64,000 bases of DNA, taken from NCBI GenBank assembly GCA_945862145.1, contig CAMAXE010000003.1, positions 164,139 to 228,138 of the forward strand. The letters run 5' to 3'. The notes below the pieces were generated by a model. It saw only the letters and a program-made list of their open reading frames with translations, had not been told where the DNA came from and searched no databases. Shown one piece after another: positions 229 through 56,458 of this stretch. The position numbers and the translations under genes were made by a program. Numbering within the stretch: position 1 is the first letter of the stretch; every line of letters starts with the position of its first letter. This DNA comes from Klebsiella pneumoniae (GTDB taxonomy: Bacteria > Pseudomonadota > Gammaproteobacteria > Pseudomonadales > UBA5518).

Positions 229-393
229 CACGCGCCAGGAGCGAGGACGAGCGGAGCAGACGGGCGACTGCGCGACAGGTGGCGTAGCGTCCGTGATGCG
301 CGACAAATTCTGGATGTCGACCATGAACCACCACTCTGCGATGGCGCATCGATGTGCGCCCACTCGCGTGTGCAACGAGCCACAGGAAGCCGC

Positions 394-2900: not shown

Positions 2901-2935
2901 ACAAGGTCTCCTCATCACCCGGACAGGACTCGAAC

Positions 2936-5525: not shown

Positions 5526-5552
5526 TTCCGAGGCACTGTCCGGGAGGCGCTC

Positions 5553-6680: not shown

Positions 6681-6714
6681 AAGGGCCCGCAATACTGACC
6701 TGGAGGAACCGACA

Positions 6715-8564: not shown

Positions 8565-9479
8565 TCACCCGGATCGGCCACCCGGTATCGAGGGCATGCG
8601 GCTGCGGACGAAGGCCCCGATCTCCTCAATCGCGCGTCTGCCTTCCTCCAACTCGTCCGCGAACAGCTGGAACACGTGGATCATCCCGTCCCATACCTCC
8701 AGCGTGACATCCACGCCCGCGGCTCGTGCGCGTTCGGCGAGGCTGCGCGAATCGTCGAGCAGCGATTCGTGGTCGCCGACCTGGATCAGCAGCGGGGGCA
8801 GCCGGCTCAAGTCGGCGTGGAGCGGTGCGACCCGCGGGTCCTGCGGGCCGACCTTGCCCGCGAGATAGATCTCGCGCTGCACGAGAATCTGTCGGCGACG
8901 CACCATGGGATCCACGTGCTTGCGTGATTCGTAGGACGCTCCGGCGCCCTCGAGATCTATCCAGGGGGAGAGCAACACTGCGGCAGCCGGCAGCGGTGTG
9001 CCCTCGCCCTTGAGTGCGAGCAGGGTCGTCGCGGCCAGCCCGCCACCGGCGGAATCGCCCGCGATCGCGATGTGGCGCGGCTCGAAGCCCTGCTCGAGCA
9101 GCCAGTGGTAGGCAGCGGTGGCGTCCTCGATCGCGGCCGGATAGGGGTGCTCGGGCGCCAGCCGGTAATTGATGCCGAGGGCACGACATCCCGCAGCGGC
9201 GGACAGGCGGGCGATGAGGCCTCGGTGAGAGGCGACCGAGCCGAGCACATAGCCGCCGCCGTGCAGATACAGCAGCACGCGCTCCGGCTTGGCTCCGGGT
9301 GCCGCGACCCACTCGGCATCGACGCCCCCGGCGCAGACGCGCTCCCAGCGCGCAGTCTGCAACTGCGTGCCGAACAGGGCGTCCCAGTCGCGGCGCATAA
9401 CCTCGTACGGCGTGCTCGCGTCCCACGCGCTCAACGTCGCGTGCAGTCGCTTCTTCAGCGCATCCATCGGAGTCGTCAT
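8565..9479 (-). CDS. Alpha/beta hydrolase, hormone-sensitive-lipase-family esterase
   Basis: HGGGY oxyanion motif (LYLHGGGYVLGS) and GDSAGG nucleophile elbow. Confidence 0.9.
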   Translation of the reverse strand: MTTPMDALKKRLHATLSAWDASTPYEVMRRDWDALFGTQLQTARWERVCAGGVDAEWVAAPGAKPERVLLYLHGGGYVLGSVASHRGLIARLSAAAGCRALGINYRLAPEHPYPAAIEDATAAYHWLLEQGFEPRHIAIAGDSAGGGLAATTLLALKGEGTPLPAAAVLLSPWIDLEGAGASYESRKHVDPMVRRRQILVQREIYLAGKVGPQDPRVAPLHADLSRLPPLLIQVGDHESLLDDSRSLAERARAAGVDVTLEVWDGMIHVFQLFADELEEGRRAIEEIGAFVRSRMPSIPGGRSG

Positions 9480-9492
9480 CAGACGCCGCCGG

Positions 9493-10668
9493 TCAGACCG
9501 GGATACGGTAGAGCTCGGCGGCGTTGTCCTGCAGCACGCGCCGCAGAACCTTGGGCTCCAGGTGTCCCATGGTCTTGCGCAAATGATCCTTGATATTCGG
9601 ATACAGGCAGGTCGGGTGCGGGAAGTCGGTTTCGAACATGATGTGCTCCACGCCGATCGACTCGATTACCGACTGCGGAGGGAGTTGCTCGAACCAGTAG
9701 CAGGCATAGATCTGGCGACGAAAGTACTCGGAGGGCTTGAGTTTCAGGTGCGCCAGTTCGTTCGGGGCCGCCTCGGTCAGCTGGTAGTCGAGCGCCTGGA
9801 GGTAAAACGGTACCCAGCCGATGCCGCTCTCGACGGACACGAATTTGCACTTCGGAAAGCGGTCGAGCATGCCACTGTAGATGAGGTTGCCTATCACGCG
9901 TGCGTTGTCGAGGTACAGGAAGGCAGAGGCCAGCGCGAGGCGGGCCTCACGCCCGAACGATGGCCACGCCGCGTGCCCCATCGCGTCAAAACCATCGGCG
10001 TTGGCGCCGATGTGGAAGTTGACCGGGATGTCCAGCGAGCTGCAGATGTCCCACAAGGGGTCCCAGTGCCTTTGCGCGAGATCAGGCATTCCGAGCGCTT
10101 CGGGGGCAAAGCACGTCACGATACCGCGCAGGCCCATCAGGTGAGTGCGCTCGACTTCCTTCACCGCTTCCGCGACGTCCCACCAGGGGATCAGTGCCTG
10201 CGGAAACAGCCGATCGCCGGAATCGCGCTGCATTTCCGCCATGGCATCGTTATAGACGGTGACGCAGAGCTTGCGCAACTTGGCGTCCTCGATCTTGAGG
10301 AAGCGGCTGTTGCCAAAACCCGCCACGTTCGGGTAGACGATCTGCGCGTGGATGCCGAGCCGATCCAGCATCGCGACACGGGCGTGGGTGTCATAGGATG
10401 ACTCGTGGACATCGTCGATGGTGAAGTTGTTGAACGCGACACCGGGAACCTTTTCCGCCTCGCTGCCCCGACGGATAACGCTGTCGGGGCCGGCGCCTCG
10501 CAGCGACACGTCGCCATTGACGAACCAGCGCTGACGACCGTCCATGACCTTTACATGTGGCACCAATTCGCGGTGGGACATCGGTACCCGGGAGGTCCAC
10601 AGATCGTGCCGCTCGGTCAGGTGCGCGTCGGTGTCGATGATTTTGATTTCGTCGAAAATGTCTGTCAC
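9493..10668 (-). CDS. Amidohydrolase-2 family protein (ACMSD-like metal-dependent hydrolase/decarboxylase)
   Basis: N-terminal IIDTDAHL and C-terminal ETDFPHP metal-ligand motifs. 391 aa. Confidence 0.85.
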   Translation of the reverse strand: MTDIFDEIKIIDTDAHLTERHDLWTSRVPMSHRELVPHVKVMDGRQRWFVNGDVSLRGAGPDSVIRRGSEAEKVPGVAFNNFTIDDVHESSYDTHARVAMLDRLGIHAQIVYPNVAGFGNSRFLKIEDAKLRKLCVTVYNDAMAEMQRDSGDRLFPQALIPWWDVAEAVKEVERTHLMGLRGIVTCFAPEALGMPDLAQRHWDPLWDICSSLDIPVNFHIGANADGFDAMGHAAWPSFGREARLALASAFLYLDNARVIGNLIYSGMLDRFPKCKFVSVESGIGWVPFYLQALDYQLTEAAPNELAHLKLKPSEYFRRQIYACYWFEQLPPQSVIESIGVEHIMFETDFPHPTCLYPNIKDHLRKTMGHLEPKVLRRVLQDNAAELYRIPV

Positions 10669-10801
10669 GGCTCACTCCTTCAGTTTAGGGAGCCATAAAG
10701 CTTCCATAAAGGTACTGTACTACGAATTTCAGCTGTGCGAAACTGGGTGCTGCAATTGATTTGTTCAATAAGTATTATTTGTAAACTTTTCGGGAGGCTG
10801 G
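10669..10801. promoter_or_regulatory. AT-rich divergent intergenic region (putative divergent promoters)
   Basis: A sharp GC dip (ttgatttgttcaataagtattatttgtaaactttt) between the divergent genes at 10668(-) and 10802(+). GGGAGG lies before the ATG at 10802. Confidence 0.5.
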
Positions 10802-12130
10802 ATGGACTGGCGTGATCTCTGTCGACACAAGCTGACCTCGGCGTCGGAAGCCTTGAAGATGGTGCGCTCGGGCGACACCGTGGCAGTGGCGACCTACCTC
10901 TCGACGCCGTTCACGCTGTGCCGAGCGCTTCTTGACCGCGCAAGGTCCGGCGAGCTCCGCAAGGTGCGGATCGAGCATCCCGCACCGTTGTTTGCCTGGG
11001 CGGAGCCCGAGGTGCGGGATGCGCTCGAGTTGCACGCCCTCTACTTGACTCCCCAGACCCGGGAGGCTTTTCTCGCCGGTGCGATGGAGTACGTGCCGGT
11101 GGGTATCTGGAAGTCCTACGAGTCCCCATGCGGGTTCAGCTCGCACCCGGACGTGTTCCTGGTCCCGGTTTCGCCGCCCGACGCCAAGGGCTACTGCAGC
11201 TTCGGCAGCGGGGTCTGGCTGTCCGGGCCGCTTGCGCGCAACGCGAAACTCGTTATCGCCGAGGTGCGGCCGGATTTCATTCGCACCTACGGCGAGAACT
11301 TCATCCATCTGGACCAGATAGACGTGCTGGTCGAGGCCGACGCGCCGGTCGAGAGCTCGCCCGCGCCTCCTCCGCCCAGTGAGGAAGAGGTCGCCTCCGT
11401 GGAGGTCATCTGCTCTCTCGTCGCTTCGGAGCTCGTGAAGGATCGTGACACGCTGCAGATCGGCGTCGGTACCGCGTCCTCGCCGCTCGGCCTGTATCTG
11501 CACGGCAAGCACGATCTGGGCATTCACACCGAAGTGCTCACGGGCGGCATCGTGGACCTGGTGAAGCAGGGCGTGGTGACGGGCAGGTACAAGGCGGTGC
11601 ATCCGTTCAAGGTGGTGGCTACTGGCATCGCGGCGCTTTCGCGCGAGGAACTCGCCGAGATCCACGAGAACCCGATCTTCGAACTCTACGACTTCGGCTA
11701 CGTCGACGACCTGCGCCGCGTGATCCAGATGGAGAACTTCGTGGCGGTTAACAACGCGCTGCTTGTCGATCTGACGGGGCAGGTGGCTGCAGAATCGCTC
11801 GACCACCGTATGTACTCGGGTGTCGGCGGCCAGTCGGTGTTCATGATTGCGGGAGCGTATTCGCAGGGCGGCAGGTCCGTGAGCGTGCTCCCCTCGAGCT
11901 CGATCCCGCGTGCCACCGGTCAGCGGGTATCGCGGATCGTGCCGGTACTGCCCCCCGGTTGTGGCGTCACGGTACCGCGCACTTTTGTCGATTACGTGGT
12001 CACCGAGTACGGCATCGCGACCTTGCGTGGCAAGTCGCTACGGGAACGTGCGAGGGAGATGGTGGCCGTGTCGCATCCGGACATGCGGGCTGAACTCGCA
12101 AAACAGGCGGCTGCCTTGTACTGTGCATGA
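10802..12130 (+). CDS. Acetyl-CoA hydrolase/transferase family protein (4-hydroxybutyrate CoA-transferase-like)
   Basis: 442 aa. N-terminus ALKMVRSGDTVAV, a GGQSVF motif and overall family architecture. Confidence 0.85.
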   Translation: MDWRDLCRHKLTSASEALKMVRSGDTVAVATYLSTPFTLCRALLDRARSGELRKVRIEHPAPLFAWAEPEVRDALELHALYLTPQTREAFLAGAMEYVPVGIWKSYESPCGFSSHPDVFLVPVSPPDAKGYCSFGSGVWLSGPLARNAKLVIAEVRPDFIRTYGENFIHLDQIDVLVEADAPVESSPAPPPPSEEEVASVEVICSLVASELVKDRDTLQIGVGTASSPLGLYLHGKHDLGIHTEVLTGGIVDLVKQGVVTGRYKAVHPFKVVATGIAALSREELAEIHENPIFELYDFGYVDDLRRVIQMENFVAVNNALLVDLTGQVAAESLDHRMYSGVGGQSVFMIAGAYSQGGRSVSVLPSSSIPRATGQRVSRIVPVLPPGCGVTVPRTFVDYVVTEYGIATLRGKSLRERAREMVAVSHPDMRAELAKQAAALYCA

Positions 12131-12172: not shown

Positions 12173-13240
12173 TTACAGCCTCGGAATCACCCGCTGGCCG
12201 AACTCCTCGATCAGTTCGCGTGCGTCGGTTCCTGCTGCCTGCAACGCGAGATTGCGCACGCCTGCCGCCTCCAGCCTGCGAACGCGTTCCACGATCTGAT
12301 CGGCCGTGCCGACCATCGTCCTCGCGATGCCGCGTTCATCGACGAAGGCGTCTTCACCTGGCTTCAAATAGACCAGGTGACCTTCATGCACGTCGAGGTA
12401 GCGCCGATCCTCCGGAGAGCCGATCGTGGCCGCGTAGCCGTCGATGTACTCGGCGTAGCGCTGGGCCAGATCCTCGTCTTTCAGGCCCAAACCGGCCCCG
12501 CCGGTAGCAGACTCCCATGCCGCGTGCGCCCGAGCGGCGACAGCCGGGCCGAGGCGCCGGACGACGCGCTCCGACATGAGACTCTCGCCATCGCCCAGCA
12601 CGCAGGCAGGCGCCAATAGAGTCGCGTATGGACGGCTGCCGCCTCCGCGGGCCTCTGTGATGGTGCGAAAGCCCGCTTCTATCGAATCCGGACGCTGGAC
12701 AAGCGTTATCCAGCCATCTGCGTGGTCGGCAACGACGCGCAACGCACGGGGGCCGTTCGCGGCGATATGGATTTCGATCGGGTCATCGAGATTGACGAAT
12801 CCGCGAGCGCGGTCGCGGTGCAGTAGCCGGATCCAGCGTTCGGCATCACCCTCCCGAAACAGTACGTCCTCGCCGGCCAGCAGCCCGCGCACCTGCTGCA
12901 CGTACGTCGCAAGCACACTGACGGGAACCGGGTGCAACCCCATGGTGTTGCGCGCGGTGCCGCCCGTGCCGATCCCGAGGATGACGCGGCCGGGTGCGAT
13001 GGCATTGATTGTCGCGAGCGCCGAGGCTGTCACCGGCGCGATGCGGTTGGACGGCACCGCCACGAGCGTGCCGAGCTTCAGTGTGCGAGTGTGTTCCGCG
13101 ACGAGCGCCATGCACGCGTAAACGTCCCCGTAGAGGAGTTGCGAGTCATAGAACCAGGCGTGGGTGAATCCGTTGGCTTCCGCGATCTGAGCGTCGCGCC
13201 AGGCGTTCGGGTGAGGTGGGAAGGTGATCCCGAAATCCAT
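12173..13240 (-). CDS. LLM-class (luciferase-like) flavin/F420-dependent oxidoreductase
   Basis: MDFGITFPP...AEANGFTHAWFYDSQLLYGDVYACMAL is a typical LLM N-terminus. 355 aa. Confidence 0.85.
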   Translation of the reverse strand: MDFGITFPPHPNAWRDAQIAEANGFTHAWFYDSQLLYGDVYACMALVAEHTRTLKLGTLVAVPSNRIAPVTASALATINAIAPGRVILGIGTGGTARNTMGLHPVPVSVLATYVQQVRGLLAGEDVLFREGDAERWIRLLHRDRARGFVNLDDPIEIHIAANGPRALRVVADHADGWITLVQRPDSIEAGFRTITEARGGGSRPYATLLAPACVLGDGESLMSERVVRRLGPAVAARAHAAWESATGGAGLGLKDEDLAQRYAEYIDGYAATIGSPEDRRYLDVHEGHLVYLKPGEDAFVDERGIARTMVGTADQIVERVRRLEAAGVRNLALQAAGTDARELIEEFGQRVIPRL

Positions 13241-13747: not shown

Positions 13748-15367
13748 CTACCCGAAGCTGAGCCCGTCGTAATCCCGGGCCGCAATCTCGGCGCATTTCT
13801 TCCGGTAAAGCGGCACGCCTCCTGCGTAGAACAGGAAGGATTCAGGTTTGCCGGGGATGTTGTTGCCGAAGAACCAGCTGCTGACGTCCGAGCGCAGCAT
13901 CTTGCCCGTCAGCGAGCGCGCGTGTTCGCACCATGCCTCCTGGGCCTCCGCCGTGGCCTCGATGCGCTCGAATCCGTGGCTTCGCATGTACCCGATGCAG
14001 CCGCTGACGAACGCGCCGGTGATCTCCGCGCAGCGGGGGAAGTTGGAGAAGACGGAACCGCCGCCGATGAACAGGTTCGGGAATCCCGCGGGCATGATGC
14101 CGAGGTGGGCGACAGGCCCTTGGGCCCAGCGATCCTTGAGCGTCGCCCCGCCCGGTCCGCGTATATCCATGCGGTCGAACTCACCGGTCACGGCATCGAA
14201 ACCCGTCGCGAAGATCAGAACGTCGAGTTCGTACTCCGCGCTCGCGGTTCGCAACCCCTTCGGCGTGATGCACTCGATCGGACTTTCCTTGACGTCGACC
14301 AGCAGCACGTTGTCCCGGTTGAACACCTCGTAGTAGTTTGTCTCGAGCGGCGGGCGCTTGGCGCCGAAGTGATACGTCGGACAAAGCTTGTCTGCGATGG
14401 CCGGATCCTTGACGCGTTCCCGGATCTTCTTGCGGATGAACTCGCAGAAGAGCTCGTTGGCTTCCCTGTTGACCATCAGGTCCTTGAAGTTGCCGAACCA
14501 CTTGCGGAAGCCGGGTTGCATCCAGACTTCCTCCCAGAACGCCTCGCGCTCCTGCGGTGTGACGTCGAAGGTCGCACGCGGATCCGGTTCGTGCGGGAAA
14601 CCCGTGAATGTCTGCCAGCACTTCTCGAACATTGCCGGGTAGCTGGCCTTGATGTCGTTCATCCTGCGGTCGTCGATGGGCGCATTGCGAAGCGGCATGC
14701 AGTAGTTCGGCGTGCGCTGGAACACTGTGAGCTGTGCGCACTGGTCCGCGATGCTGGAGACGATCTGGACGCCCGTGGAGCCCGTACCGATCACGCCGAC
14801 CCGCTTCCCCGCGAAATCGACGCCTTCGCGGGGCCAGCGCGCGGTGTGAAAGCACTGGCCCTGGAAGCTTTTGATCCCGGGGATGTCGGGCAGGTGCGTG
14901 GCCGAGAGGATGCCGACCGCGGTGATCAGGATTCGGGTGCTGGCGCGCCGGCCGTCTTCCGTTTCGACCTGCCAGCGATTGGATGCTTCGTCGTATCTGG
15001 CGGACGTCACGCGCGCACCGAAGTGGATGTGCGGCCGCAACCCGAAACGATCGGTCACGTAGTTGAGATAGTGCTCGATCTCCTGCGCCGGGGCGAACTC
15101 GGCGGACCAGTTCCATTCCTGCAGCAGCTCTGCGGAGAACGAATAGGCATACGCCCAGCTCTCCGAATCCAGGACTGCCCCGGGGTAGTGGTTCCAGTAC
15201 CACGTGCCTCCCACGCCCTCGCCTGCCTCGTAGATGCGCGCGTCGATACCCAGTTGCCGCAGGCAGTGGAGTTGGTATAGCCCGCTTACCCCAGCGCCGA
15301 TGATCAGCGCATCGAGTTGCTCATCGACGTTGCTCGGGTCGTTCGCGTGCTCGGGTCGTTGTGTCAT
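13748..15367 (-). CDS. Baeyer-Villiger (type I flavin) monooxygenase
   Basis: FAD motif IIGAGVSG. BVMO fingerprint FQGQCFHTARWP (FxGxxxHxxxWP). Second Rossmann motif GVIGTGSTG. The start was taken at MTQRPEH (in-frame arithmetic from ORF 13748..15544). Confidence 0.9.
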   Translation of the reverse strand: MTQRPEHANDPSNVDEQLDALIIGAGVSGLYQLHCLRQLGIDARIYEAGEGVGGTWYWNHYPGAVLDSESWAYAYSFSAELLQEWNWSAEFAPAQEIEHYLNYVTDRFGLRPHIHFGARVTSARYDEASNRWQVETEDGRRASTRILITAVGILSATHLPDIPGIKSFQGQCFHTARWPREGVDFAGKRVGVIGTGSTGVQIVSSIADQCAQLTVFQRTPNYCMPLRNAPIDDRRMNDIKASYPAMFEKCWQTFTGFPHEPDPRATFDVTPQEREAFWEEVWMQPGFRKWFGNFKDLMVNREANELFCEFIRKKIRERVKDPAIADKLCPTYHFGAKRPPLETNYYEVFNRDNVLLVDVKESPIECITPKGLRTASAEYELDVLIFATGFDAVTGEFDRMDIRGPGGATLKDRWAQGPVAHLGIMPAGFPNLFIGGGSVFSNFPRCAEITGAFVSGCIGYMRSHGFERIEATAEAQEAWCEHARSLTGKMLRSDVSSWFFGNNIPGKPESFLFYAGGVPLYRKKCAEIAARDYDGLSFG

Positions 15368-15461
15368 CTGCGTCTTCCTGCTTGTCCGGTCATCGACGGG
15401 TCCGTGGCCGGGTCCCGCCGCGTGACGGCAGGCGCAGTGCGCGCAACTCCTGCTCCACACA

Positions 15462-16178
15462 TCAGCTATGGTCCGGGCGGTAGGGTTTGGGGTGCCACAC
15501 GATGGAACCGCGGGCGCCTGCATCGGTTGCAACGGGGCGGGCATCGACGCGGGTCTCGGTCAGGCGTTCAGTGTCCTCGCTCCTCTGGGGCTCGACGGCG
15601 TCGGTAATGCTTTCTGCCACCGCATCCTGCGTCGCCTGGCGCTTGGGACTCTCCTGGTTCGACCCGTCAGTGAAATTCACCGCCCAGGCGCCATCCTCGC
15701 GCACCGTCAGTCGTAGGTCGTAACGGGCGCCCACGTCCGTCGCCTGATTCCGCTGGATGAGGTACGAAACAGCCTCGAAAACGGTGGCAGGATCCGCACC
15801 CAGATCGGGGCCGAACCGGGGCAATGCGTGTTGCAGCCACCAAAGGGCCATCTCGCGCACGATCGGCTCTACGCTCTTCCCGAAATCCGTCAGCGTGTAA
15901 CGGGCGCGATTCCCGAAAGGAACCTTTTCGACGAAGCCGTGCGAGATCAATTCCGAAAGCCGGACGCTCAGAAGCCGCGGCGTGATGCCTGTGCGGTCGC
16001 GCAGTTCCTGGAAGCCGTGCTGATCGGTCAGCAAGTGCCGGATCAGGATCAATGTCCAACGGGCACCGAGAAGGTCAATCGCATGTTCGAGCGGCCGAAG
16101 ACTGGACGCCTTGTTCGCCGACTCATCACCGAGTGTTTCTTTGCTGGGCGACATTGCTGTGGATTTTGCGGATGCCAT
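15462..16178 (-). CDS. HxlR-family winged-helix transcriptional regulator with a long C-terminal extension
   Basis: LLGARWTLILIRHLL..GFQELRDRTGITPRLLSVRLSELISHGFVEK. At 238 aa it is about twice the usual HxlR length. Divergent from the mau-type cluster. Confidence 0.82.
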   Translation of the reverse strand: MASAKSTAMSPSKETLGDESANKASSLRPLEHAIDLLGARWTLILIRHLLTDQHGFQELRDRTGITPRLLSVRLSELISHGFVEKVPFGNRARYTLTDFGKSVEPIVREMALWWLQHALPRFGPDLGADPATVFEAVSYLIQRNQATDVGARYDLRLTVREDGAWAVNFTDGSNQESPKRQATQDAVAESITDAVEPQRSEDTERLTETRVDARPVATDAGARGSIVWHPKPYRPDHS

Positions 16179-16420
16179 GGGTGTCTGCTGCCTAGGGTGT
16201 GAAGTTGATATATAAAAACAATCAAGTCAACAAGAATTTTATTGAAGTATTTAAAGTGTAGTGTAATATTGCTTCATCGGTATTGTTTGCGTAGACTACC
16301 AAAAAATGTCGGGCAAAAGAGGCTCGCTCGGCACAGGGGCATGGCGCTACGGGGTTCAGCTCGTCAGGAGCGTAGTGCCCCGGGGGCGGTGAACAGCAGG
16401 CTGGGGACGGGAGAATCCAT
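16179..16420. promoter_or_regulatory. AT-rich divergent control region between hxlR-like and mauB-like genes
   Basis: GC dip (gttgatatataaaaacaatcaagtcaacaagaattttattgaagtatttaaagtg) with GTTGA..TCAAC inverted ends. There is an imperfect hairpin at ~16336-16383, and GGGAGAA lies before the ATG at 16421. Confidence 0.5.
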
Positions 16421-17824
16421 ATGGTCGGGAAATCTGTCGCGAGCGCTGCCGGCGTCGATGCCAGTGGCGCCAAGCTCGATCGGCGCAGCGCCAGATGGGC
16501 TGCGCTTTGCCGGTGGTGCGTGCGCCATGCCCGTTCATGGCGCACGGCAGCGTGGCAGCTTCTGTTCATTGCCACGGTCGGCGTAGGCGGCTGGCCAGCG
16601 CTGTCGCAGGCAGAGCTCACCGCGGAGCCGCTCGGCCAGGTAAAGGCACTCGGTCCGCCGTCCCCGCACTGGATCCTGTACTTCCTGTTCGACGGCAGCC
16701 CCGAGGTCAGCAAGTACGTGCTCTTCGATGCCGACACGCTGGAGTATAAGGCGTGGATCTCGACCGGCTACATTCCCTCGCTTGTGCAGTCACCCGACGG
16801 GCGCGCGCTCTACGTCGCCGACACCTACATGGACGGCCCGGAGCGGTTGCGAAGGGACGTCATCAGCTTCTACGACACGCACGATTATAGCTTCAGCGGC
16901 AAGATAGAGATGCCGGAGAATCACCGGGCGATGCTGGGCTCGCAGTTCCGCACGGGGCTCGTACATGACGGCCGTTTCTTGCTCTCCCTGAAGTTCAAGC
17001 CTGGCTCCGGGATCAGTGTCATCGACACCTCCGAGCGGCGGATTGTCGGCGAAGTGGACACGCCAGGCTGCACGCTGATGTATCCGACGGGCAAGCGCGG
17101 TGTCTCGATGATCTGTGGCAATGCCAGCTTGCTGACGATCCAATTCGATGACAAGGGGCATGTCGCGTCGCAGACCCGCAGCGAGCCGTTCTTCGATCCC
17201 GATGCCGATCCCGTGATGGAGAACGCCGCGGCGATCGGTGGCACGTGGTACTTTTTGAGCTACGCCGGCAATGTTCATGTGGTGGACCTTTCCGGTGACC
17301 TGCCGCAGTTCCGCGGAAACTGGCCGCTCTCGGCGGGAAGCGGGAAGCGGGAGGGAGGCGGCGCGGGAGCGGGCTCGGCAACGTCCACGCGGGATACCGG
17401 CGCCGAAGACGGCGCGTGGCGGCCCGGCGGCGTGCAGTACATCGCGACGCACGCCGCGCGCGGGGAGCTGTACGTGCTGATGCATCCGGTGGCCATGAGC
17501 GGGGAGTATGGTCACACCTTTCCTGGCACGGAGGTCTGGGTGTTCGATGCCGCTGAGAAAAGCCTGAAGCGGCGGATCCCACTCAAAGAGATGGCGAACA
17601 CGGTGTTCGTGACCGCCGATGCAAAACCGCTCATGATCACCAGTGGTATCAGCCTGCTGCACGGCGACAGGGACGCCAAGATTCCTCCGGCGCAGCAAGT
17701 CATCGCGCCGGTCTCGAACATCCACGTCTACGATGCAGCGACGGGTGGATTCTTGCGCGAGGCCAAGGAACTGGGAATGACCTACTACTTCGATACCGCA
17801 CCAGGGGCCGGAGGGACTCGATGA
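16421..17824 (+). CDS. mauB: Methylamine/aromatic-amine dehydrogenase heavy-chain homolog (7-bladed propeller)
   Basis: Colinear similarity to MADH heavy chains (YVADTYM..RRDVISFYD; GAWRPGGVQYIATH..GELYVLMH; EVWVFDAAEKSLKRRIPL; IHVYDAATG). Long basic N-terminal leader with a hydrophobic core ending ALSQA. Confidence 0.88.
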   Translation: MVGKSVASAAGVDASGAKLDRRSARWAALCRWCVRHARSWRTAAWQLLFIATVGVGGWPALSQAELTAEPLGQVKALGPPSPHWILYFLFDGSPEVSKYVLFDADTLEYKAWISTGYIPSLVQSPDGRALYVADTYMDGPERLRRDVISFYDTHDYSFSGKIEMPENHRAMLGSQFRTGLVHDGRFLLSLKFKPGSGISVIDTSERRIVGEVDTPGCTLMYPTGKRGVSMICGNASLLTIQFDDKGHVASQTRSEPFFDPDADPVMENAAAIGGTWYFLSYAGNVHVVDLSGDLPQFRGNWPLSAGSGKREGGGAGAGSATSTRDTGAEDGAWRPGGVQYIATHAARGELYVLMHPVAMSGEYGHTFPGTEVWVFDAAEKSLKRRIPLKEMANTVFVTADAKPLMITSGISLLHGDRDAKIPPAQQVIAPVSNIHVYDAATGGFLREAKELGMTYYFDTAPGAGGTR

Positions 17825-18348
17825 AGCATTTGCTGGATAATTGGACCGATCGTGTTACACGCGACATCGCGCGCCGTAGTTCGCGCCGTGCATTCCTGTC
17901 CCGGCTGGGCGTGTGGCTGGTAGGTGGCGCCGCCGCGCCGTTGCTGCTTCCCGTGGCCCGCGTTTATGCGAGTGCCGATGACGTGAAGCCTGCCGAGATC
18001 GGGGACCCCCTCAGCTGTGATTACTGGCGTTACTGCGCGCAGGGAGGACCGCTCTGCGGATGTTGCGGCGGCTCCTACAACCAGTGTCCGCCCGGGACCG
18101 AGCAGTCCAAGATGGCGTGGATTGGCACGTGTCTGAATCCGGCCGATAACAAGCACTACCTGATCGCCTACTACGATTGTTGCGGCAAGTCTGTCTGCCA
18201 GCATTGCACGTGCTTCCGCTTCGAGCGAGAGCAGCCGGTTTACCGTACAGGGCAGGCCAACGACGTCCACTGGTGCCAGGCGAACTCCAGCCCCGCGGTG
18301 GCGTGCACGCTGGCGATAGTGCTCGGGCCTGCGGAAAATGCGTCGTAA
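17821..18348 (+). CDS. mauA: TTQ-type amine dehydrogenase light-chain homolog
   Basis: Twin-Arg leader RRSSRRAFLSRLG. CDYWRYC..CPPGT..MAWIGTC..YLIAYYDCCG..PVYR..NDVHWC is colinear with Paracoccus MauA, and the two TTQ Trp are 51 residues apart. ATGA overlap with mauB. Confidence 0.9.
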   Translation: MKHLLDNWTDRVTRDIARRSSRRAFLSRLGVWLVGGAAAPLLLPVARVYASADDVKPAEIGDPLSCDYWRYCAQGGPLCGCCGGSYNQCPPGTEQSKMAWIGTCLNPADNKHYLIAYYDCCGKSVCQHCTCFRFEREQPVYRTGQANDVHWCQANSSPAVACTLAIVLGPAENAS

Positions 18349-18838
18349 AGCATTTGCCTTTGGCGTCGCGATGATCGTCGCGCTGCATGGTGCCGCGGCG
18401 CATTCCGATGCACGATACAACGCGAAGACGAACTACATCCTGCACTGTCAGGGTTGTCATGGCGTCGACGGCATCGGCGCGCTCCCCGAAAAGGTGCCTC
18501 CGCTCGCCGATTCGATAGGCTATTTTCTCCACGTTCCGGAGGGTCGCCGGTACCTGGTCCAGGTGCCGGGGGCCGCGTACGCGGCCGTCGACGACGAGGC
18601 ACTCGCGGAAGTCCTGAATTACGTGCTGCTGCGCTTCAGCGCAGCACAGCTCCCGGCCACCTTCCGGCCCTACTCGGCCGATGAGGTCGCCCGTGTGCGA
18701 CGCTCGCCCGAGGACATCGTCTCGCTGCGCGCCCGGCTGGCCGCGGAGCTCCGGGAGAAGCAGGGGATTTGCGTCTGGGCGGGAGACGGCGCGGCGTGGG
18801 GGTCAGGGTGCGGAGAAGCATATGGACTTGTCGATTGA
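18338..18838 (+). CDS. Mono-haem c-type cytochrome
   Basis: Signal peptide plus a single CQGCH haem-binding motif. Overlaps the mauA stop by 11 nt and the mauE start by 17 nt. Confidence 0.8.
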   Translation: MRRKAFAFGVAMIVALHGAAAHSDARYNAKTNYILHCQGCHGVDGIGALPEKVPPLADSIGYFLHVPEGRRYLVQVPGAAYAAVDDEALAEVLNYVLLRFSAAQLPATFRPYSADEVARVRRSPEDIVSLRARLAAELREKQGICVWAGDGAAWGSGCGEAYGLVD

Positions 18839-19367
18839 GCCGGTAACTGGTTTCACAAGCCGCCTGGTGCTCGTGCTCGTGTTTGGAGTGGCACTGGTGC
18901 ACAAGCTCCGCGAGCCTTCCCGCTTTATCGGAGTGCTGCGCGAGTACAGGTTGCTTCCCGCCACGATGGTCGTGCCTGCGGCGGTTCTGGTGATCGGCGC
19001 CGAAGCGTTCGCCGTCGTGGCTATCTGGTGGCAGGGCTCGCGCGCTTGGGCGGGGATGGTCGCGGTGACGCTGCTCCTCACCTATAGCGTGGCGATCGGC
19101 ATCAACGTCCGGCGTGGCCGCAGCGAGATCGATTGCGGCTGCTCGTTCGGGCCTGCCGGCCAACCGCTCTCGAGCGCATTGCTGGTCCGCAACGCTCTAT
19201 TGTTGGCGCCATGCGCTGCGGCGGGAATCCCGGTGACGGGTGCGCTCGATGCAGTCGGGGTCGTCGTTGGGCGGCTGGGTGCGGCGGCGCTCGGGCTCTG
19301 TTACCAGGTCTGGGGCGTGCTACTCGCGAACCGGCCCCGCATCCTGCAACTGGAGGGACTGAGATGA
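18822..19367 (+). CDS. mauE: MauE-family membrane protein (methylamine utilisation accessory)
   Basis: Internal ATG of ORF 18681..19367 (MDLSIEPVTGF...). HKLREPSRF..LREYRLLP..NVRRGRSEIDCGCSFG is the characteristic MauE pattern. Four hydrophobic segments. Confidence 0.85.
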   Translation: MDLSIEPVTGFTSRLVLVLVFGVALVHKLREPSRFIGVLREYRLLPATMVVPAAVLVIGAEAFAVVAIWWQGSRAWAGMVAVTLLLTYSVAIGINVRRGRSEIDCGCSFGPAGQPLSSALLVRNALLLAPCAAAGIPVTGALDAVGVVVGRLGAAALGLCYQVWGVLLANRPRILQLEGLR

Positions 19368-19972
19368 GCACGGTGATCCTGGCGTCGAACGTGTTGCTCT
19401 GGATCACGGTGATCCTCCTCATACTTGCGGTGCTCGGGCTCAGCCGGCAGATTGGCGTGCTGCTGGAGCGGGTCGCCCCAGCGGGCGCGCTGATGACGGG
19501 CAAGGGGCTGAAGCCAGGGGAGGCCGCACCCGAACTGGAGCTGACGAGTCTGGGGGGCAAGCCGGTCCACGTGGGCGGGGCGCGCAGCGACAACCGCAGC
19601 ACGTTGCTGTTCTTCCTCTCACCGACCTGTCCCATGTGCGATGCCGTGGTGCCTGCCGTTCGCAGCCTCGCGCACAGCGAGCGCAGTTGGCTTGACGTCG
19701 TGCTGGCCAGCGATGGAGACGACGCTGACCACGAGGGCTATGTGAAGCGCAAGAAACTGCAGGAGTTGCCCTATGTGGTTTCGCGCGAGCTCGGGCTGCG
19801 TTTCCGCGTCGGTCAGCTCCCGCATGCCGCGCTGGTCGACGAGAACGGCGTCGTTGCTGCCGCCGGACTCATCAATACGCGCGAGCATCTCGACAGCCTG
19901 CTCGAGGCAAAGCATCGCGGCGTCGCGTCCCTGCAGCAGTACTTCGAGTTGAAGTCACAGCGCAAGGTTTGA
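19364..19972 (+). CDS. mauD: MauD-family thioredoxin-fold protein (TlpA-like, CPxC)
   Basis: Internal ATG of ORF 19133..19972 (MSTVILASNVLLWITVILL), giving an N-terminal TM anchor. Redox motif SPTCPMCD. ATGA overlap with mauE. Confidence 0.85.
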   Translation: MSTVILASNVLLWITVILLILAVLGLSRQIGVLLERVAPAGALMTGKGLKPGEAAPELELTSLGGKPVHVGGARSDNRSTLLFFLSPTCPMCDAVVPAVRSLAHSERSWLDVVLASDGDDADHEGYVKRKKLQELPYVVSRELGLRFRVGQLPHAALVDENGVVAAAGLINTREHLDSLLEAKHRGVASLQQYFELKSQRKV

Positions 19973-20034
19973 GTGGTGCCGCGCCGGTCTTTCTTGGTAG
20001 CGCTCTGGCGATGTGACGTTCTGGTGGGGTTTCG

Positions 20035-22446
20035 ATGAGTACGAATGGCACGGTGACGCGGGGGACAAAGGGAATGCTCTCGCCCTACCGGGTGCTGGAC
20101 CTGACCGACGATCGAGGAGACCTCGCAGGCTGTCTGCTGGCACAACTCGGCGCCGAGGTCATTGCGATCGAACCCGCAGAGGGCCAGCGCTCCCGCCAAC
20201 TGGGGCCGTTCGTGCACGATCAGCATGATCCGGAGGCGTCGCTGTCCCACTGGGCGTACAACCGGGGCAAGCGCTCCGTCGTGCTCGATTTTCCCGAGCA
20301 GCTAGAGGCGCTGGCGGAAGGCGCCGACATTCTGATCGAGTGCGGTGGCATGCCCGTCGACCTCGGGCGGCTTCGCGAGATCAATCCCCTGTTGATCACC
20401 GTGTCGATCACGCCATTCGGCCAGACCGGACCCAAGGCAGCTTGGGCGGCGACGGACCTTACCGTGTGTGCAGCCTCGGGGGCGCTCGCGCTGACGGGCG
20501 ACGAGGACCGCGCCCCGGTGCGCGTCGGCACCTCGCAGACCTGGCGGTTCGCGGCAGCAGACGCGGCATGTGCCGCGCTTCTGGCGCTGTGGGAGCGGCA
20601 CAGTTCCGGTCGCGGACAGCATGCCGACATCTCGGCGCAGGAATCCTACATCACCACGACCCAGCACCAGACCATGGCTGCGCTCGTCGGGAAACCCGCC
20701 GCACAGCGGATTGGCGGCGGGCTTCGTGTCGGGTCCGCTGTGGCGCAGGTCGTCTTTCCCGCCAGGGACGGCCACGTCACGATGGGATTCCTGGGTGGAG
20801 CACTGTTTGGTGGGTACACCGCTCGGTTGTTCGCGTGGATCCACGAGGAGGGTCTGTGCGAAGCGCGCTGGGTCGAAGCGGACTGGAGTGGAATCGGGCT
20901 TCTCAGCGAAGACCCGGAATCGGTTTACCTGATGCAGGAAGGCAAGCACGTCATTGCGCGCTTTACAGCCACCAAGACAAAGGAAGAATTGCTTGCCGGA
21001 GCCATGGAGCGGCGACTGCTGATAGCGCCGGTCATGACGACGCGCGACCTGCTGGGTCTCGAGCACCTTGCCGCACGCGCCTGGTGGCACGATGTCGAAG
21101 GCATACGCTGCCCGGGCGCCTTCGCCAAGGCGTCAGCGGCCCCGTTGCGCCTGCTCGGTCGACCTGCGCGACTGGGTGAGCACACGCGCGAGGTCCTTGC
21201 CGCGTTGCCCCGCTCTGTGGGAGAGAGCCGGGCAGTCGCCAACGGTAGCGCGCTGCCGCTGCACGGGATCACGGTGCTGGATTTCACCTGGGTTTTTGCG
21301 GGCCCGGGGACGACGCGGATCCTCGCGGATCACGGTGCTACCGTGATCCGCGTGGAGTCGCAACGCAGGCCCGACGGAGCGCGGACAGGGACACCCTTCA
21401 TCGGTGAGGCGGGCAATCAGGAAAACTCGCTCTTCTGGCACTCGCTGAATGCCGGCAAGCAGAGCTTCACGCTGGATCTTGGGCACTCCCGCGCCAGGCA
21501 GGTCATCCTTGACCTCGTGGCCCGCGCGGACATCGTCGTCGAATCGTTCTCGCCAGGGACCATGGACAGCCTGGGTATCGGCTACGAGGCGCTCCGCCAA
21601 GCGAACCCTCGCCTTATCATGCTGTCAAGCTCCCTGATGGGTCAGACCGGTCCCATGCGGGGCTACGCGGGCTACGGCATGGCCGGTGCTGCCATCGCGG
21701 GTTTCTATGCTCTTGCCGGTTGGCCCGATCGTCCCCCGAGCGGACCATTCGGGGCTTACTCGGACTACCCGGCGCCCCGCTTCGGCGTTGCCGCCCTGCT
21801 CGCTGCGCTGGAGTGGCGGCTGCGAACCGGCGAGGGCCAGTTCCTGGATTTCGCGCAACTCGAGGGGGCCGCGGAACTGCTTGCGCCGGAGATACTCGAT
21901 GCCGCGGTGAACGAGCGCGTGGTTGCAGCGCGCGGAAACGAGGATTCCTGGATGTCACCGCATGGTGTCTATCCGGTCACCGGCGAGGATCAGTGGGTCG
22001 CGATCGCCTGCGAGACGGACGAACACTGGCAGGCACTGGCGCAACTGCTAGGGCGCGGTGATCTGGCGGGCCTTGATCTGGAGCAGCGGCGCAGTCGCCG
22101 GGAAGAGCTTGACGGGGTGCTCGAGGAGTGGACGCGCGCGCGGCAAGGCGAGGAGATCGAGGCCGCGCTGCAGGCGCGCGGTGTTCCCGCACACCGGGTC
22201 CTCTACGCACCTGATGTGGTCCGCGATGCCCAACTCGAGCATCGCGGCCACTTCCAGAAGGTACCCCACCCGATCCACGGGACGAGCTGGGCGGAGCGAT
22301 CCTCGATCCGGCTCTCGCGTACGCCGGGGTTCCCGCGATGGGCGGGACCGACGATAGGCCAGCACCTGCACGAAATCCTGTCGGACATGCTCGGTTACGA
22401 CGACGAGCACATCGCAGGGCTGATCGCCGAAGGCGCGCTGGAGTAG
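20035..22446 (+). CDS. Tandem two-domain family III CoA-transferase fusion (beta-type N-domain + alpha-type C-domain)
   Basis: 803 aa. Two complete CaiB/BaiF domains start at MLSPYRVLDLTDDRG and at LPLHGITVLDFTWVFAGPG. The alternative start at 20074 (MLSPY) matches the paralog at 26974. Confidence 0.9.
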   Translation: MSTNGTVTRGTKGMLSPYRVLDLTDDRGDLAGCLLAQLGAEVIAIEPAEGQRSRQLGPFVHDQHDPEASLSHWAYNRGKRSVVLDFPEQLEALAEGADILIECGGMPVDLGRLREINPLLITVSITPFGQTGPKAAWAATDLTVCAASGALALTGDEDRAPVRVGTSQTWRFAAADAACAALLALWERHSSGRGQHADISAQESYITTTQHQTMAALVGKPAAQRIGGGLRVGSAVAQVVFPARDGHVTMGFLGGALFGGYTARLFAWIHEEGLCEARWVEADWSGIGLLSEDPESVYLMQEGKHVIARFTATKTKEELLAGAMERRLLIAPVMTTRDLLGLEHLAARAWWHDVEGIRCPGAFAKASAAPLRLLGRPARLGEHTREVLAALPRSVGESRAVANGSALPLHGITVLDFTWVFAGPGTTRILADHGATVIRVESQRRPDGARTGTPFIGEAGNQENSLFWHSLNAGKQSFTLDLGHSRARQVILDLVARADIVVESFSPGTMDSLGIGYEALRQANPRLIMLSSSLMGQTGPMRGYAGYGMAGAAIAGFYALAGWPDRPPSGPFGAYSDYPAPRFGVAALLAALEWRLRTGEGQFLDFAQLEGAAELLAPEILDAAVNERVVAARGNEDSWMSPHGVYPVTGEDQWVAIACETDEHWQALAQLLGRGDLAGLDLEQRRSRREELDGVLEEWTRARQGEEIEAALQARGVPAHRVLYAPDVVRDAQLEHRGHFQKVPHPIHGTSWAERSSIRLSRTPGFPRWAGPTIGQHLHEILSDMLGYDDEHIAGLIAEGALE

Positions 22447-26973: not shown

Positions 26974-29352
26974 ATGCTGAGTCCCTATCGTGTCCTCGAT
27001 TTGACTGACGACAGGGGTCAGCTCGCGGGCTATATCCTCGCCCAGATGGGCGCGGACGTCATCGCTATCGAGCCAGCCGAAGGGCATCGGAGCCGGCGGC
27101 TGGGGCCTTTCCTCGCGGATCGGCGCGACGCGGAGTCTTCGCTGACGCATCTTGCTTACAACCGCGGCAAGCGTTCGGTGGTTATTGATGCGCCGGCGCA
27201 ACTCGAGCGTCTTGCTGCGACCGCCGACGTGCTCGTCGAGTGCGGTGCGATGCCAGTAGATCTCGCGCGGCTGCGCTCGCTGAACTCCTCCCTGATCACG
27301 GTGTCGATCACGCCCTTTGGCCAGACGGGTCCCAAGGCAGGTTGGGCCGCCACGGACCTAACGGTCTGCGCGGCCGCCGGAACGTTGGGTATCACGGGCG
27401 ATCCGGATCGCGCACCGTTCCGGATCTGCGTGCCGCAGGCTTTTGCATTCGCCGCGGCCGATGCCGCGTGCGCCGTACTGCTCGCCTTGTGGGAGCGCCA
27501 TCGCTCCGGGCGCGGACAGCACGCCGACATTTCGGTGCAGCACTCCTACCACTCCGCGACGCAGTTCCAGACCATGGCGGCGCTGGTCGGCAAGCCGGTC
27601 GGGAAACGCCTCGGCGGAGGTCACAAGATCGGGGCCGTCACGATGCAGGCGGTGCACGCGTGCAAGGACGGCCACGTTACGGCATCGTTCCTGTTCGGGC
27701 CGGTGTTCGGCCCGTACGCGACGCGCCTGTTCCGCTGGATACACGAGGAGGGGCACTGCAGCGAGTGGTGGCCCCTGAACGATTGGGTCTCCTTCGGGCG
27801 CGTAGTGCGCGAGGATCCCGGCGGACTCGAGAGGATGGAGGAGGGGATGACTATCCTCCGTCGTTTCCTGGCGACGAAGACCAAGCACGAACTCTTCACA
27901 GCAGCCGTCGCGCGCCGCCTGCTGATCGCGCCGGTCATGACCGCGCGGGATCTGCTGGCCTTCGAGCATCTCGAGGCGCGAGGGTGGTGGCAGGACGTGG
28001 ACGGCTTGCGGGCACCCGGAGCCTTCGTCCGGGCGCCGGCCTCGCCGCTGCGCGCCTTGGGGCGCGCCCCTCGGATCGGTGAGCACTCATCCCTGCTGGA
28101 CGAAGCGAGCCGCCCGAGCGAATCACCGCAGGCCGCCGAGAGCGGCACCGGTGGCCCGCTGCCACTGGCCGGCTTGCGCGTGCTCGACTTCACCTGGGCA
28201 CTGGCCGGACCGGGGAGCACGCGTATCCTCGCCGATCACGGCGCCTGTGTGATCCGCATCGAGTCGCAGCGAAAAATGGACATCCTGCGCGGCGCCTCGC
28301 CGTTCCTCGGCGAGGACGGCCAACCGGAGAACGCGCTGTCATGGCACTCGGCCAATGCGGGGAAGCTCGGCGTCACGCTGGATCTCGGGCACGAGCGTGC
28401 ACGGGACGTGGTGCTGGATCTCGCGCGATGGGCTGACATCGTTGTCGAGTCGTTCTCCTTCGGCACAATGGAGCGTTTTGGCATCGGCTACGACTCGCTG
28501 CGCGCGGTGAACCCTCGCCTGATCATGCTGTCGAGCTGCCTGCTGGGAGCGACGGGACCGCTGCGTGCCTATGCGGGCTTCGGCGGCGCGGGTGCCGCGG
28601 TAGCGGGGTTCTATGCGCTCGCCGGCTGGCCCGATCGACTGCCGGCCGGTCCTTACGGGGCGTACTCGGACTACACGTCGCCGCGCTTCATGGTGGCGGC
28701 GCTGATGGGCGCTCTGGAATGGCGGCGCCGCACCGGTGAGGGCCAGCATCTGGATTTCGCGCAGATGGAAGGCGCGGTGCAGATGATCGCGCCGGTCCTG
28801 CTCGACATGGCGGCGAACGGACACGCCATCGAGCGTTGCGGAAACGAGGATCCGCACATGTCGCCGCACGGCGTGTACCCCGCAAGGGGCGACGATCGCT
28901 GGATCGCCGTTACCTGCGAGACCGACGCGCAGTGGCGCATGCTTGCGCGCGTGATCGATCGTGTCGATCTCGCCAGCCTGGACCTCGGGGCAAGGCTCAC
29001 CCGGCGTCGCGAGCTCGACGAGGCGGTTACGGCGTGGACGCGCGAGCGGGATGTTGCGGAAGCCGAACGGTTGTTGCAGGCCGCAGGCGTGCCCTCGCAT
29101 CGCATCGCCTACGCCGAGGACATCCTTGCCGACGCACAACTCGCGCACCGTCGACACTGGCAGCGTGTGCCACACCCCGAGCACGGCGAGACCTGGGCGG
29201 AAGGTCCTGCCATACAATTGGCACGCACGCCCGGCGCACCGCGCTGGGGTGGGCCGACTTTCGGGCAACATCTGCAGGAGGTGCTTGCGGAGGTCCTCGG
29301 CTACGAGGCGGACAAGATCGCCGATCTCATCGGTTCGGGCGCATTCGAGTAG
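26974..29352 (+). CDS. Tandem two-domain family III CoA-transferase fusion, paralog of 20035..22446
   Basis: 792 aa. Colinear with the 803-aa fusion at roughly two-thirds identity by eye. The second domain starts at LPLAGLRVLDFTWALAGPG. Confidence 0.9.
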   Translation: MLSPYRVLDLTDDRGQLAGYILAQMGADVIAIEPAEGHRSRRLGPFLADRRDAESSLTHLAYNRGKRSVVIDAPAQLERLAATADVLVECGAMPVDLARLRSLNSSLITVSITPFGQTGPKAGWAATDLTVCAAAGTLGITGDPDRAPFRICVPQAFAFAAADAACAVLLALWERHRSGRGQHADISVQHSYHSATQFQTMAALVGKPVGKRLGGGHKIGAVTMQAVHACKDGHVTASFLFGPVFGPYATRLFRWIHEEGHCSEWWPLNDWVSFGRVVREDPGGLERMEEGMTILRRFLATKTKHELFTAAVARRLLIAPVMTARDLLAFEHLEARGWWQDVDGLRAPGAFVRAPASPLRALGRAPRIGEHSSLLDEASRPSESPQAAESGTGGPLPLAGLRVLDFTWALAGPGSTRILADHGACVIRIESQRKMDILRGASPFLGEDGQPENALSWHSANAGKLGVTLDLGHERARDVVLDLARWADIVVESFSFGTMERFGIGYDSLRAVNPRLIMLSSCLLGATGPLRAYAGFGGAGAAVAGFYALAGWPDRLPAGPYGAYSDYTSPRFMVAALMGALEWRRRTGEGQHLDFAQMEGAVQMIAPVLLDMAANGHAIERCGNEDPHMSPHGVYPARGDDRWIAVTCETDAQWRMLARVIDRVDLASLDLGARLTRRRELDEAVTAWTRERDVAEAERLLQAAGVPSHRIAYAEDILADAQLAHRRHWQRVPHPEHGETWAEGPAIQLARTPGAPRWGGPTFGQHLQEVLAEVLGYEADKIADLIGSGAFE

Positions 29353-34731: not shown

Positions 34732-34816
34732 GGCATTGTCCTTTCGAGTATCGATGCGTCAGGCATGCGGATCGCGCTGAGCTTCCCTGCTCCTCGGGCG
34801 CGCGCAGGGTTCCGCT

Positions 34817-35632: not shown

Positions 35633-35692
35633 GTCGATTCACCTTTGCGAATGGTTTTTTGGCCTGTACCTGACGCAGCGTCCGTCCCGCGA

Positions 35693-36508: not shown

Positions 36509-36574
36509 AGTTCGTTTCCTCTGGTGGTCTGATTCCGGGGATGACGCGGTGTGGCGTCGATTGCGGCGCTGGTT

Positions 36575-39485: not shown

Positions 39486-39795
39486 AAGTATACGAAAAAT
39501 ACCTTTGCGCAGGACGATTGCAGATTTTTCTTGCGTAACTCGACGCAAATATTTATAACATACTTAAAAGAGGGCAAAATCGGAACTCGAAGATTCCTGC
39601 TTAAGGGTACTGTCTCGGATAGCCGCTTCTGGAACTGGAGTAAAGCGAGCCGAAGATACGGTAAACGGAGAACGAATTCCTGGCCCCAGACCGACACTTG
39701 TGAACGCCGCGGGATGTTCACCCATACGGAGATGCACTGACCCGGTCGAGCGGTAGCGATTTACAACGAGAAGATCATCAAAGAGGAGCATGGGA

Positions 39796-42180: not shown

Positions 42181-42272
42181 GCGTGGCGATACCGGCAGGG
42201 GGGGCGTTCCGAGTCACCGGCGTCGCCCCTGATTTCGACGTCCTGAGCGGGAACAGGAAGAGAGAAACTGCT

Positions 42273-42719: not shown

Positions 42720-42729
42720 GGGGAAAGAG

Positions 42730-56344: not shown

Positions 56345-56458
56345 GCGGCGTGAGGGTGACGTCGCTAAGGTGCCCGAGGAACAGATTCCACCGGTCGCGG
56401 CGATGCGTCGGGCAGGGCATCAATGGCTGTGGCTGTCGCGGTGATGGGAGGGGAGCAT

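Follow-up and report, generated by a model that had tools for sequence, protein, structure and literature searches.

A probable aau-type tryptophan tryptophylquinone amine dehydrogenase operon with a permuted gene order and a variant light-chain active site

Organization of the operon

We analyzed a 64,000-nucleotide stretch of contig CAMAXE010000003.1 (assembly GCA_945862145.1, positions 164,139 to 228,138 of the forward strand), hereafter called the window, which carries a compact cluster of five genes predicted to encode an amine dehydrogenase with a tryptophan tryptophylquinone (TTQ) cofactor together with its accessory proteins. An earlier reading made without database searches (the sequence-only reading) had placed an HxlR-like regulator divergent to five overlapping genes for a heavy chain, a light chain, a mono-heme cytochrome c, MauE and MauD. 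Profile matches verified these coordinates and families, and all five gene identities stand. The features are as follows.

15462-16178, minus strand: HxlR-family winged-helix regulator (PF01638, 55 bits), divergent from the operon
16179-16420, unstranded: putative divergent promoter/operator spacer of 242 bp, AT-rich relative to the genome
16421-17824, plus strand: heavy (alpha) subunit, a beta-propeller like that of aromatic amine dehydrogenase (AADH) (PF06433, 92 bits)
17821-18348, plus strand: light (beta) subunit precursor (PF02975, 152 bits)
18338-18838, plus strand: periplasmic mono-heme cytochrome c of the aau orf-2 family, with a single CQGCH motif
18822-19367, plus strand: MauE/AauE, a DsbB-like membrane disulfide-forming protein (PF07291, 87 bits; CGC motif)
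19364-19972, plus strand: MauD/AauD, a membrane-anchored thioredoxin-fold protein (TIGR02661, 204 bits; CPMC motif)

Consecutive genes of the operon overlap by 4, 11, 17 and 4 nucleotides at the four junctions, and a weak terminator-like hairpin lies just past the MauD gene, at 19974-19986. MauD scores above the TIGR02661 equivalog cut-off (204 versus 188.6 bits) and is 45% identical to MauD of Paracoccus denitrificans, and a CXC active site has been demonstrated for MauE homologues (bioRxiv 10.64898/2026.03.05.709764). Within the spacer, the palindrome GTTGATATATA/TATATAAAAAC at 16204-16219 is a candidate site for the HxlR regulator, and short blocks are common to the window and its relative L001 (loci compared with the window carry L numbers), for example GAAGTATTTAAAGT and AAAGTATCTAAAAT. 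A promoter scan of 16179-16420 found no match to the sigma-70 consensus, and an Rfam scan of the window returned no matches. The divergent HxlR gene, 56% identical, is retained in the closest relatives, L001 and L002, and is not kept in L003 or L007.

Affiliation with the aau lineage

The adjacent, overlapping subunit genes encode homologues of PF02975 and PF06433, the pairing found in the TTQ-dependent family, and these subunit families, together with the tryptophan pair and catalytic aspartate described below, bear out the sequence-only assignment to the TTQ-type amine dehydrogenases. Two known systems invite comparison. The mau cluster of P. denitrificans (mauRFBEDACJGMN) encodes methylamine dehydrogenase (MADH, EC 1.4.9.1), and shares with the window homologues of the heavy chain, light chain, MauE and MauD. 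The aau cluster of Alcaligenes faecalis encodes AADH (aralkylamine dehydrogenase, EC 1.4.9.2), and contains the same five gene families as the window.

Similarity scores placed both subunits nearer to AADH than to MADH, in agreement with the earlier suggestion of an enzyme other than methylamine dehydrogenase. A. faecalis AADH is the best solved relative of both: the heavy chain matched the AADH alpha subunit in the Protein Data Bank (PDB) with 118.7 bits, versus 66-77 bits for MADH, while the light chain matched AADH beta with 130 bits and MADH with 94-128 bits. Both subunits fell far below the cut-offs of the MADH equivalog hidden Markov models, at 93.8 bits against 454 for the heavy chain (TIGR02658) and 136.5 bits against 196.85 for the light chain (TIGR02659). 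The light chain contains 14 cysteines, which correspond one to one with those of A. faecalis AADH (CSCCGG ... TACGRC), whereas MADH has 12; the count of 14 in the sequence-only reading was correct, but it represents the AADH pattern rather than an oddity. The heavy chain is 28% identical to AauB of the A. faecalis locus (L087), and carries an insertion of approximately 20 residues, GSGKREGGGAGAGSATSTRDTGAEDG, relative to it.

In a neighbor-joining tree of 89 light chains, calculated without bootstrap, the window grouped with L001, L002, L003 and L007, and this group was sister to the A. faecalis AADH clade, with MADH as a distant outgroup. Nesting of the light chain among characterized methylamine dehydrogenases, which the sequence-only reading had named, in combination with a standard mauG/mauF/mauC set elsewhere, as counting against it, is not what the tree gave; the window lies inside an AADH-like radiation.

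The A. faecalis locus, which we retrieved by means of its light chain, has the order aauB-aauE-aauD-aauA-orf2. Its full layout is an aldehyde dehydrogenase, an outer-membrane channel-like protein, aauB, aauE, aauD, aauA, a 166-aa protein, an AraC regulator, a 267-aa protein and hemE, in agreement with the layout reported for the aau cluster by Chistoserdov in 2001. That account reportedly called orf-2 a mono-heme cytochrome c, and is said to have noted the absence of mauF, mauG, mauL, mauM and mauN from the aau cluster. The window cytochrome (166 aa) is 37% identical to A. faecalis orf-2 (166 aa, with no Pfam match; E 9e-28), and because the two are homologous, the window carries the aau five-gene set in permuted form. 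A Pseudomonas aeruginosa plasmid record is already annotated aauB-mauE-mauD-aauA-cycA-cycA. By comparison, the mau locus of the P. denitrificans plasmid (L173), which reads mauRFBEDA-amicyanin-mauJ-mauG-mauM-mauN, contained no homologue of the window cytochrome.

Several mau genes are missing from the window. A six-frame scan of the 64 kb found no stop-to-stop open reading frame (ORF) of at least 60 aa with two CxxCH motifs, and tblastn with P. denitrificans MauG, MauF, amicyanin, MauJ, MauM and MauN gave no match at E<=1e-3. No cupredoxin was detected in the window with azurin and amicyanin sequences as queries. The first two results agree with each other, and confirm both the earlier statement that the 64 kb has no MauG, MauF or amicyanin and the statement that no ORF there has two CxxCH motifs; a MauG concealed as an unusual ORF was ruled out for the window by the same CxxCH scan and the tblastn search with MauG. 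The A. faecalis cluster resembles the window in this respect, as it, too, lacks MauG, MauF and amicyanin over 10 kb on either side.

A canonical mau operon can therefore be rejected on the basis of the equivalog scores, the PDB ranking and the absence of all mau-specific genes from the window. The sequence-only reading had presented the missing MauG and the mono-heme cytochrome as departures from the mau operon; with the A. faecalis aau cluster as the proper comparator, the departure disappears, as a MauG-less layout with a mono-heme cytochrome is already known for the aau type. Taken together, the comparisons make it quite probable that the product of the operon is a TTQ enzyme of alpha2-beta2 composition, a periplasmic dehydrogenase of primary amines that belongs to the aau rather than the mau lineage.

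Gene order and distribution of related clusters

To place the window among its relatives, we scanned species-representative genomes, where at least 599 stretches code for light-chain relatives, the best match being 61% identical, and examined 86 genome loci. Writing B, A, c, E and D for the genes of the heavy chain, light chain, cytochrome, MauE and MauD, the majority order among these loci is B-E-D-A-c, as in A. faecalis, whereas the window has B-A-c-E-D. The latter order was found in only four other genome loci (L001, L002, L003 and L007) and in two metagenome loci (L094 and L095), and is a clade-specific permutation. The gene order in the sequence-only reading was thus real, although it had been judged against the mau cluster, the wrong reference. 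About a dozen genome loci have B-A-c with neither E nor D nearby. Eight loci (L004, L008, L009, L013, L030, L033, L035 and L057) encode the heavy chain, light chain and cytochrome only, and neither MauE nor MauD is found within 10 kb; in such clusters, the light chains presumably rely on the general Dsb machinery. Tandem heavy/light pairs occur at L070, L083 and L125 (B-A-B-A-c or B-A-B-E-D-A-c), which suggests two isoenzymes with one common accessory gene set.

The link between cytochrome and light chain was nearly invariant. An orf-2-type cytochrome, always with one CxxCH motif, followed the light-chain gene in 84 of the 86 genome loci. In the reverse test, 80 metagenome loci were fetched by the cytochrome motif, and 57 of them had the 450 nt or more of upstream sequence needed for testing; a light-chain gene lay directly upstream of the cytochrome in 55. 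A MauG homologue adjoined the cluster in one genome locus only, L047. This gene (10921-11967, minus strand; PF03150) encodes a protein 50% identical to P. denitrificans MauG, and converges on a cluster of the order B-E-D-A-c, the light chain of which has Gly where MADH has Asp32. Other multi-heme ORFs near related clusters were considered as MauG candidates and rejected, namely a class III tetraheme protein at L003, a c7-like protein at L056 and a cytochrome c4 fusion at L016; only the L047 protein belongs to the CCP/MauG family. The MauG-less layout with an orf-2-type cytochrome, known from the aau type, is here shown to be general, and is the rule across hundreds of species. Specific to the clade of the window are the permuted order, with E and D behind the cytochrome, the Gly75/His150 pair in the light chain and a neighborhood of acyl-CoA genes.

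Cofactor residues and active-site variant of the light chain

The light chain begins with a twin-arginine leader (SRRAFL), as the sequence-only reading had recognized. Trp100 and Trp151 are 51 residues apart, at the spacing of residues 57 and 108 in MADH, and the catalytic aspartate is D119 in a YDCCG motif; the earlier claims of a tryptophan pair at this distance and of an equivalent of MADH Asp76 hold. W100, W151 and D119 align without gaps to both AADH and MADH, and are invariant in 123 sequences. A Thr after C162 is also present, and the catalytic Asp, both Trp and this Thr are unchanged across the light chains compared. In alignment A1, at least 90% of the sequences retain C82 and C126.

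The pocket around these residues differs from that of the solved enzymes. Gly75 occupies the position of Asp32 in MADH and Asp84-beta in AADH, both in ungapped HMMER alignments to the solved structures and in MAFFT alignments, and the replacement of Asp32 by Gly, which the sequence-only reading had aligned by eye, withstood this check. His150 stands where the AADH types have an Asn (Asn156-beta in A. faecalis) preceding the second TTQ tryptophan. Of 297 non-redundant light chains, 223 have Asp in the Asp32 column, and the others have Gly (48), Ser (14), Asn (11) or His (1). Asn precedes the second cofactor Trp in 213 of the 223 Asp-type light chains, and 66 of the 74 others have Leu (44) or His (22) there; at least five further light-chain positions co-vary with the Asp32 column in the same set. 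The relatives L003 and L007 have Asn at the Asp32 position, with His before the second Trp, while a separate clade has Gly or Ser together with Leu, and the Asp32 equivalent has been lost in at least two separate clades. A chance or misaligned Gly75 is ruled out because no gaps occur in the alignments to AADH and MADH, relatives share the residue, and it co-varies with other positions.

The Gly75/His150 pair appears to mark a distinct substrate-pocket subtype, one of several uncharacterized active-site subtypes defined by the co-variation of Asp to Gly, Ser or Asn with Asn to His or Leu, and probably with new substrate ranges. The pattern points to retained quinone chemistry in an altered pocket, and does not by itself identify the substrate. 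Asp32 of MADH is important for TTQ biogenesis and substrate affinity, and the TTQ enzymes form a small, well-studied family that has served as a model for proton tunneling. One could go further and propose that enzymes of the Gly75/His150 type act on another class of substrate altogether, for example amines with an anionic group. The replacement of Asp in 74 of 297 light chains, its tight co-variation with the residue before the Trp and at least five other positions, and its occurrence in two or more separate clades would fit such a shift. However, the enzymes retain the catalytic Asp, the Trp pair and the Thr, the accessory genes are unchanged, and no substrate-specific transporter or pathway gene is consistently linked at the loci examined, and we consider this proposal quite improbable.

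The orf-2-type cytochrome

The window cytochrome falls below the threshold of every Pfam and NCBIfam model, and its family, which comprises approximately 467 clusters at 50% identity (E<=1e-30), has no model of its own. A profile built from 41 family members matched cytochrome c552 of Thermus thermophilus (PDB 1C52) in two blocks, with E 3e-20. An AlphaFold2 model of the window protein had a predicted local distance difference test score of 85, and its top four Foldseek matches were c552 structures, with template modeling scores of 0.54/0.68. T. thermophilus c552 is thus the best match of the window cytochrome in both profile and fold, including the region of the C-terminal wrap-around helix.

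The two proteins differ at the heme. Residues 50-72 of c552, the segment with the axial Met69 opposite His15, are skipped in the match and replaced in the cytochrome family by approximately five residues (VPGAA), so that the axial-Met loop following the GGREYL helix is deleted. Alignment with normal c552 domains showed that the GLxGxI and xMPx segments are missing from the window cytochrome, from A. faecalis orf-2 and from the C-terminal domains of fused relatives. In 19 of 95 homologues there is no Met after the CxxCH motif; the window protein is one of these, and its mature form is Met-free. No newly conserved Met, His, Lys or Tyr was found in alignments of the family. Because the Met loop is deleted and no replacement ligand is conserved, the heme of the orf-2-type cytochromes is predicted to lack the usual sixth ligand.

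Some members of the family are joined to other cytochrome domains. At L016, from a Halieaceae metagenome-assembled genome (MAG), one ORF (10345-11400) directly after the light-chain gene encodes a tri-heme protein in which a Met-less domain is fused to a di-heme cytochrome c4 with normal Met ligands. Four proteins (P0355, P0356, P0360 and P0366) combine an N-terminal normal c552-type domain, with its xMPx Met loop, and a C-terminal Met-less orf-2-type domain; these two-domain proteins correspond to the paired cytochrome genes of B-E-D-A-c-c loci, such as that on the P. aeruginosa RW109 plasmid (L174 8347-9244). In about ten loci, the orf-2-type cytochrome is followed by a c4-like gene of its own. 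The window cytochrome and its closest relatives, P0243 and P0247, end in a 25-residue C-terminal tail with two conserved Cys (ICVW...CGE), which the other family members do not have and which is modeled with low confidence.

Electron transfer and TTQ maturation

A working scheme for the operon can be assembled from these features. The light chain would be exported through the twin-arginine translocation pathway, and its seven disulfides would be made by the DsbB-like MauE and the thioredoxin-like MauD. Trp100 and Trp151 would then be converted to TTQ, with Asp119 acting as the catalytic base in the oxidation of a primary amine to aldehyde and ammonia. Electrons would most likely exit through the co-translated orf-2-type cytochrome, and the aldehyde product may be oxidized further, activated with coenzyme A (CoA) and beta-oxidized, as the neighboring acyl-CoA genes suggest.

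For the cytochrome, we lean toward the role of electron acceptor. Its gene occupies the slot that amicyanin has in mau operons, relatives are fused to cytochrome c4 (L016) or, in many cases, to c552 domains, and about ten loci have a separate c4-like gene close by. At L047, moreover, an orf-2-type cytochrome and a MauG homologue stand side by side.

Several points weigh against the scheme as a whole. The cytochrome has no conserved sixth heme ligand, and a pure electron carrier would usually have one. The accepted electron acceptor of A. faecalis AADH is azurin, not a cytochrome, and the AADH-azurin complexes 2H3X and 2IAA are among the PDB matches of the window subunits. Also to be taken into account are the low identity of the heavy chain to AauB (28%) and the missing Asp32 equivalent, a loss that could mean a different chemistry, and we know of no biochemistry for any member of the clade to which the window belongs.

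The maturation of TTQ in such clusters raises a separate question. In MADH, the final six-electron oxidation of TTQ biogenesis is performed by MauG. To our knowledge, TTQ biogenesis is understood only for MADH, and the route in AADH, with no mauG in the cluster, has been open since the aau sequence of 2001. One answer is that a conventional MauG or di-heme peroxidase homologue encoded elsewhere in the genome matures the cofactor, the operon being an ordinary aau cluster. We regard this as a real possibility with less than an even chance of being correct, since the contig is at least 246 kb long and our search covered 64 kb of it. The relative L047 does have a MauG gene beside its cluster, and recombinant AADH was reportedly made by Hothi et al. 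in 2005 in P. denitrificans, a host with MauG. On the other hand, adjacency in one of 86 loci contrasts with the mau operons (L173), where mauG is always in the cluster. In favor of a distal enzyme, MauG-family proteins have been reported to be much more widespread than MauA (bioRxiv 10.64898/2026.03.05.709764).

Another answer would assign the maturation step to the orf-2-type cytochrome itself, as a heme-dependent factor in place of MauG whose open heme oxidizes the precursor Trp. Four observations are consistent with this: the deletion of the Met-bearing c552 loop with no alternative ligand conserved, including the 19 of 95 homologues without any Met after CxxCH; the near-obligate adjacency to the light-chain gene in both directions; the lack of an adjoining MauG at 85 of 86 clusters; and the fusions to a His/Met c552 domain, which formally combine an open-site heme with an electron-transfer heme, as do MauG and the di-heme peroxidases (PF03150). 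The likeness is one of functional analogy only, both being c-type heme proteins linked to a TTQ light chain. There is no homology or fold relationship between the two, MauG having two hemes in approximately 390 aa and the window cytochrome one heme in 166 aa, and a single heme would be a poor store for six oxidizing equivalents. L047 has the cytochrome in addition to its MauG homologue, and the c4 fusion and amicyanin-like gene position point to electron transfer instead. A maturation role is unlikely in our view, and we continue to prefer that of electron acceptor. The broader combination, in which the Met-less cytochrome is a MauG-independent TTQ catalyst or an essential partner of one and the Gly75/His150 enzyme may use new amines, is equally doubtful. 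If it were true, the overlapping five-gene operon would be a complete, minimal kit for producing a TTQ enzyme. The linkage of cytochrome and light chain, together with the loss of the axial-Met loop, turns the puzzle of MauG-independent TTQ into a one-gene experiment.

Genomic neighborhood

The surroundings of the operon are dominated by acyl-CoA metabolism, in contrast to the aldehyde dehydrogenase and outer-membrane channel protein of the A. faecalis locus, and its regulator is of the HxlR type rather than the AraC type found there. The sequence-only reading had drawn on an aldehyde dehydrogenase in this context; the gene is present, but at a distance.

2822-4363: aldehyde dehydrogenase, approximately 12 kb from the operon and not adjoining it

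Around this gene, in 352-7950, lie several family III CoA-transferases, an acyl-CoA dehydrogenase and a thiolase, and an esterase, an amidohydrolase and an acetyl-CoA hydrolase/transferase are also found upstream of the operon. Downstream are a doubled family III CoA-transferase, a SnoaL-like protein, a MaoC-like hydratase and acyl-CoA dehydrogenases. The acyl-CoA neighborhood is common to the window, L001, L002 and L095, and was not seen at the L003 or L007 loci; at L003, a molybdenum aldehyde-oxidoreductase pair lies directly upstream of the cluster. Because the context recurs in the first three relatives and not in the last two, a link of the operon to fatty-acyl-like catabolism is plausible but weak, and the hydrophobic or long-chain amine substrate suggested in the sequence-only reading is a tentative proposal.

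Upstream of the operon, an esterase-type alpha/beta-hydrolase (8565-9479), a luciferase-like monooxygenase (12173-13240) and a Baeyer-Villiger-type flavin monooxygenase (13748-15544, minus strand) together look like a ketone-to-ester-to-acid module. Two proteins of approximately 800 aa (20035-22446 and 26974-29352) each consist of two tandem family III CoA-transferase domains, and single-domain paralogues, at least four in number, are encoded at other places in the window (among them 352-1665, 1665-2900 and 5553-6680). Four consecutive enoyl-CoA hydratase/isomerase genes at 33895-37390 on the minus strand, three of them encoding proteins of exactly 271 aa, form an array of tandem paralogues where the G+C content is slightly lower (approximately 0.60).

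At the right end of the window (56350-60767) are flagellar export genes of the FliR, FlhB and FlhA types. Taken with a TonB-dependent receptor, they point to a diderm bacterium with motility, which conflicts with the 'Dehalococcoidia' label of the closest named MAG, L001 (GCA_050247955.1), and since the window has both kinds of gene, the labels of the nearest MAGs (Dehalococcoidia and Rhodospirillaceae) are unreliable. The receptor gene itself stands in a row with those for a small cytochrome c (CAQCH) and a dehydrogenase dependent on pyrroloquinoline quinone (39790-44802), a second periplasmic quinoprotein system in the window.

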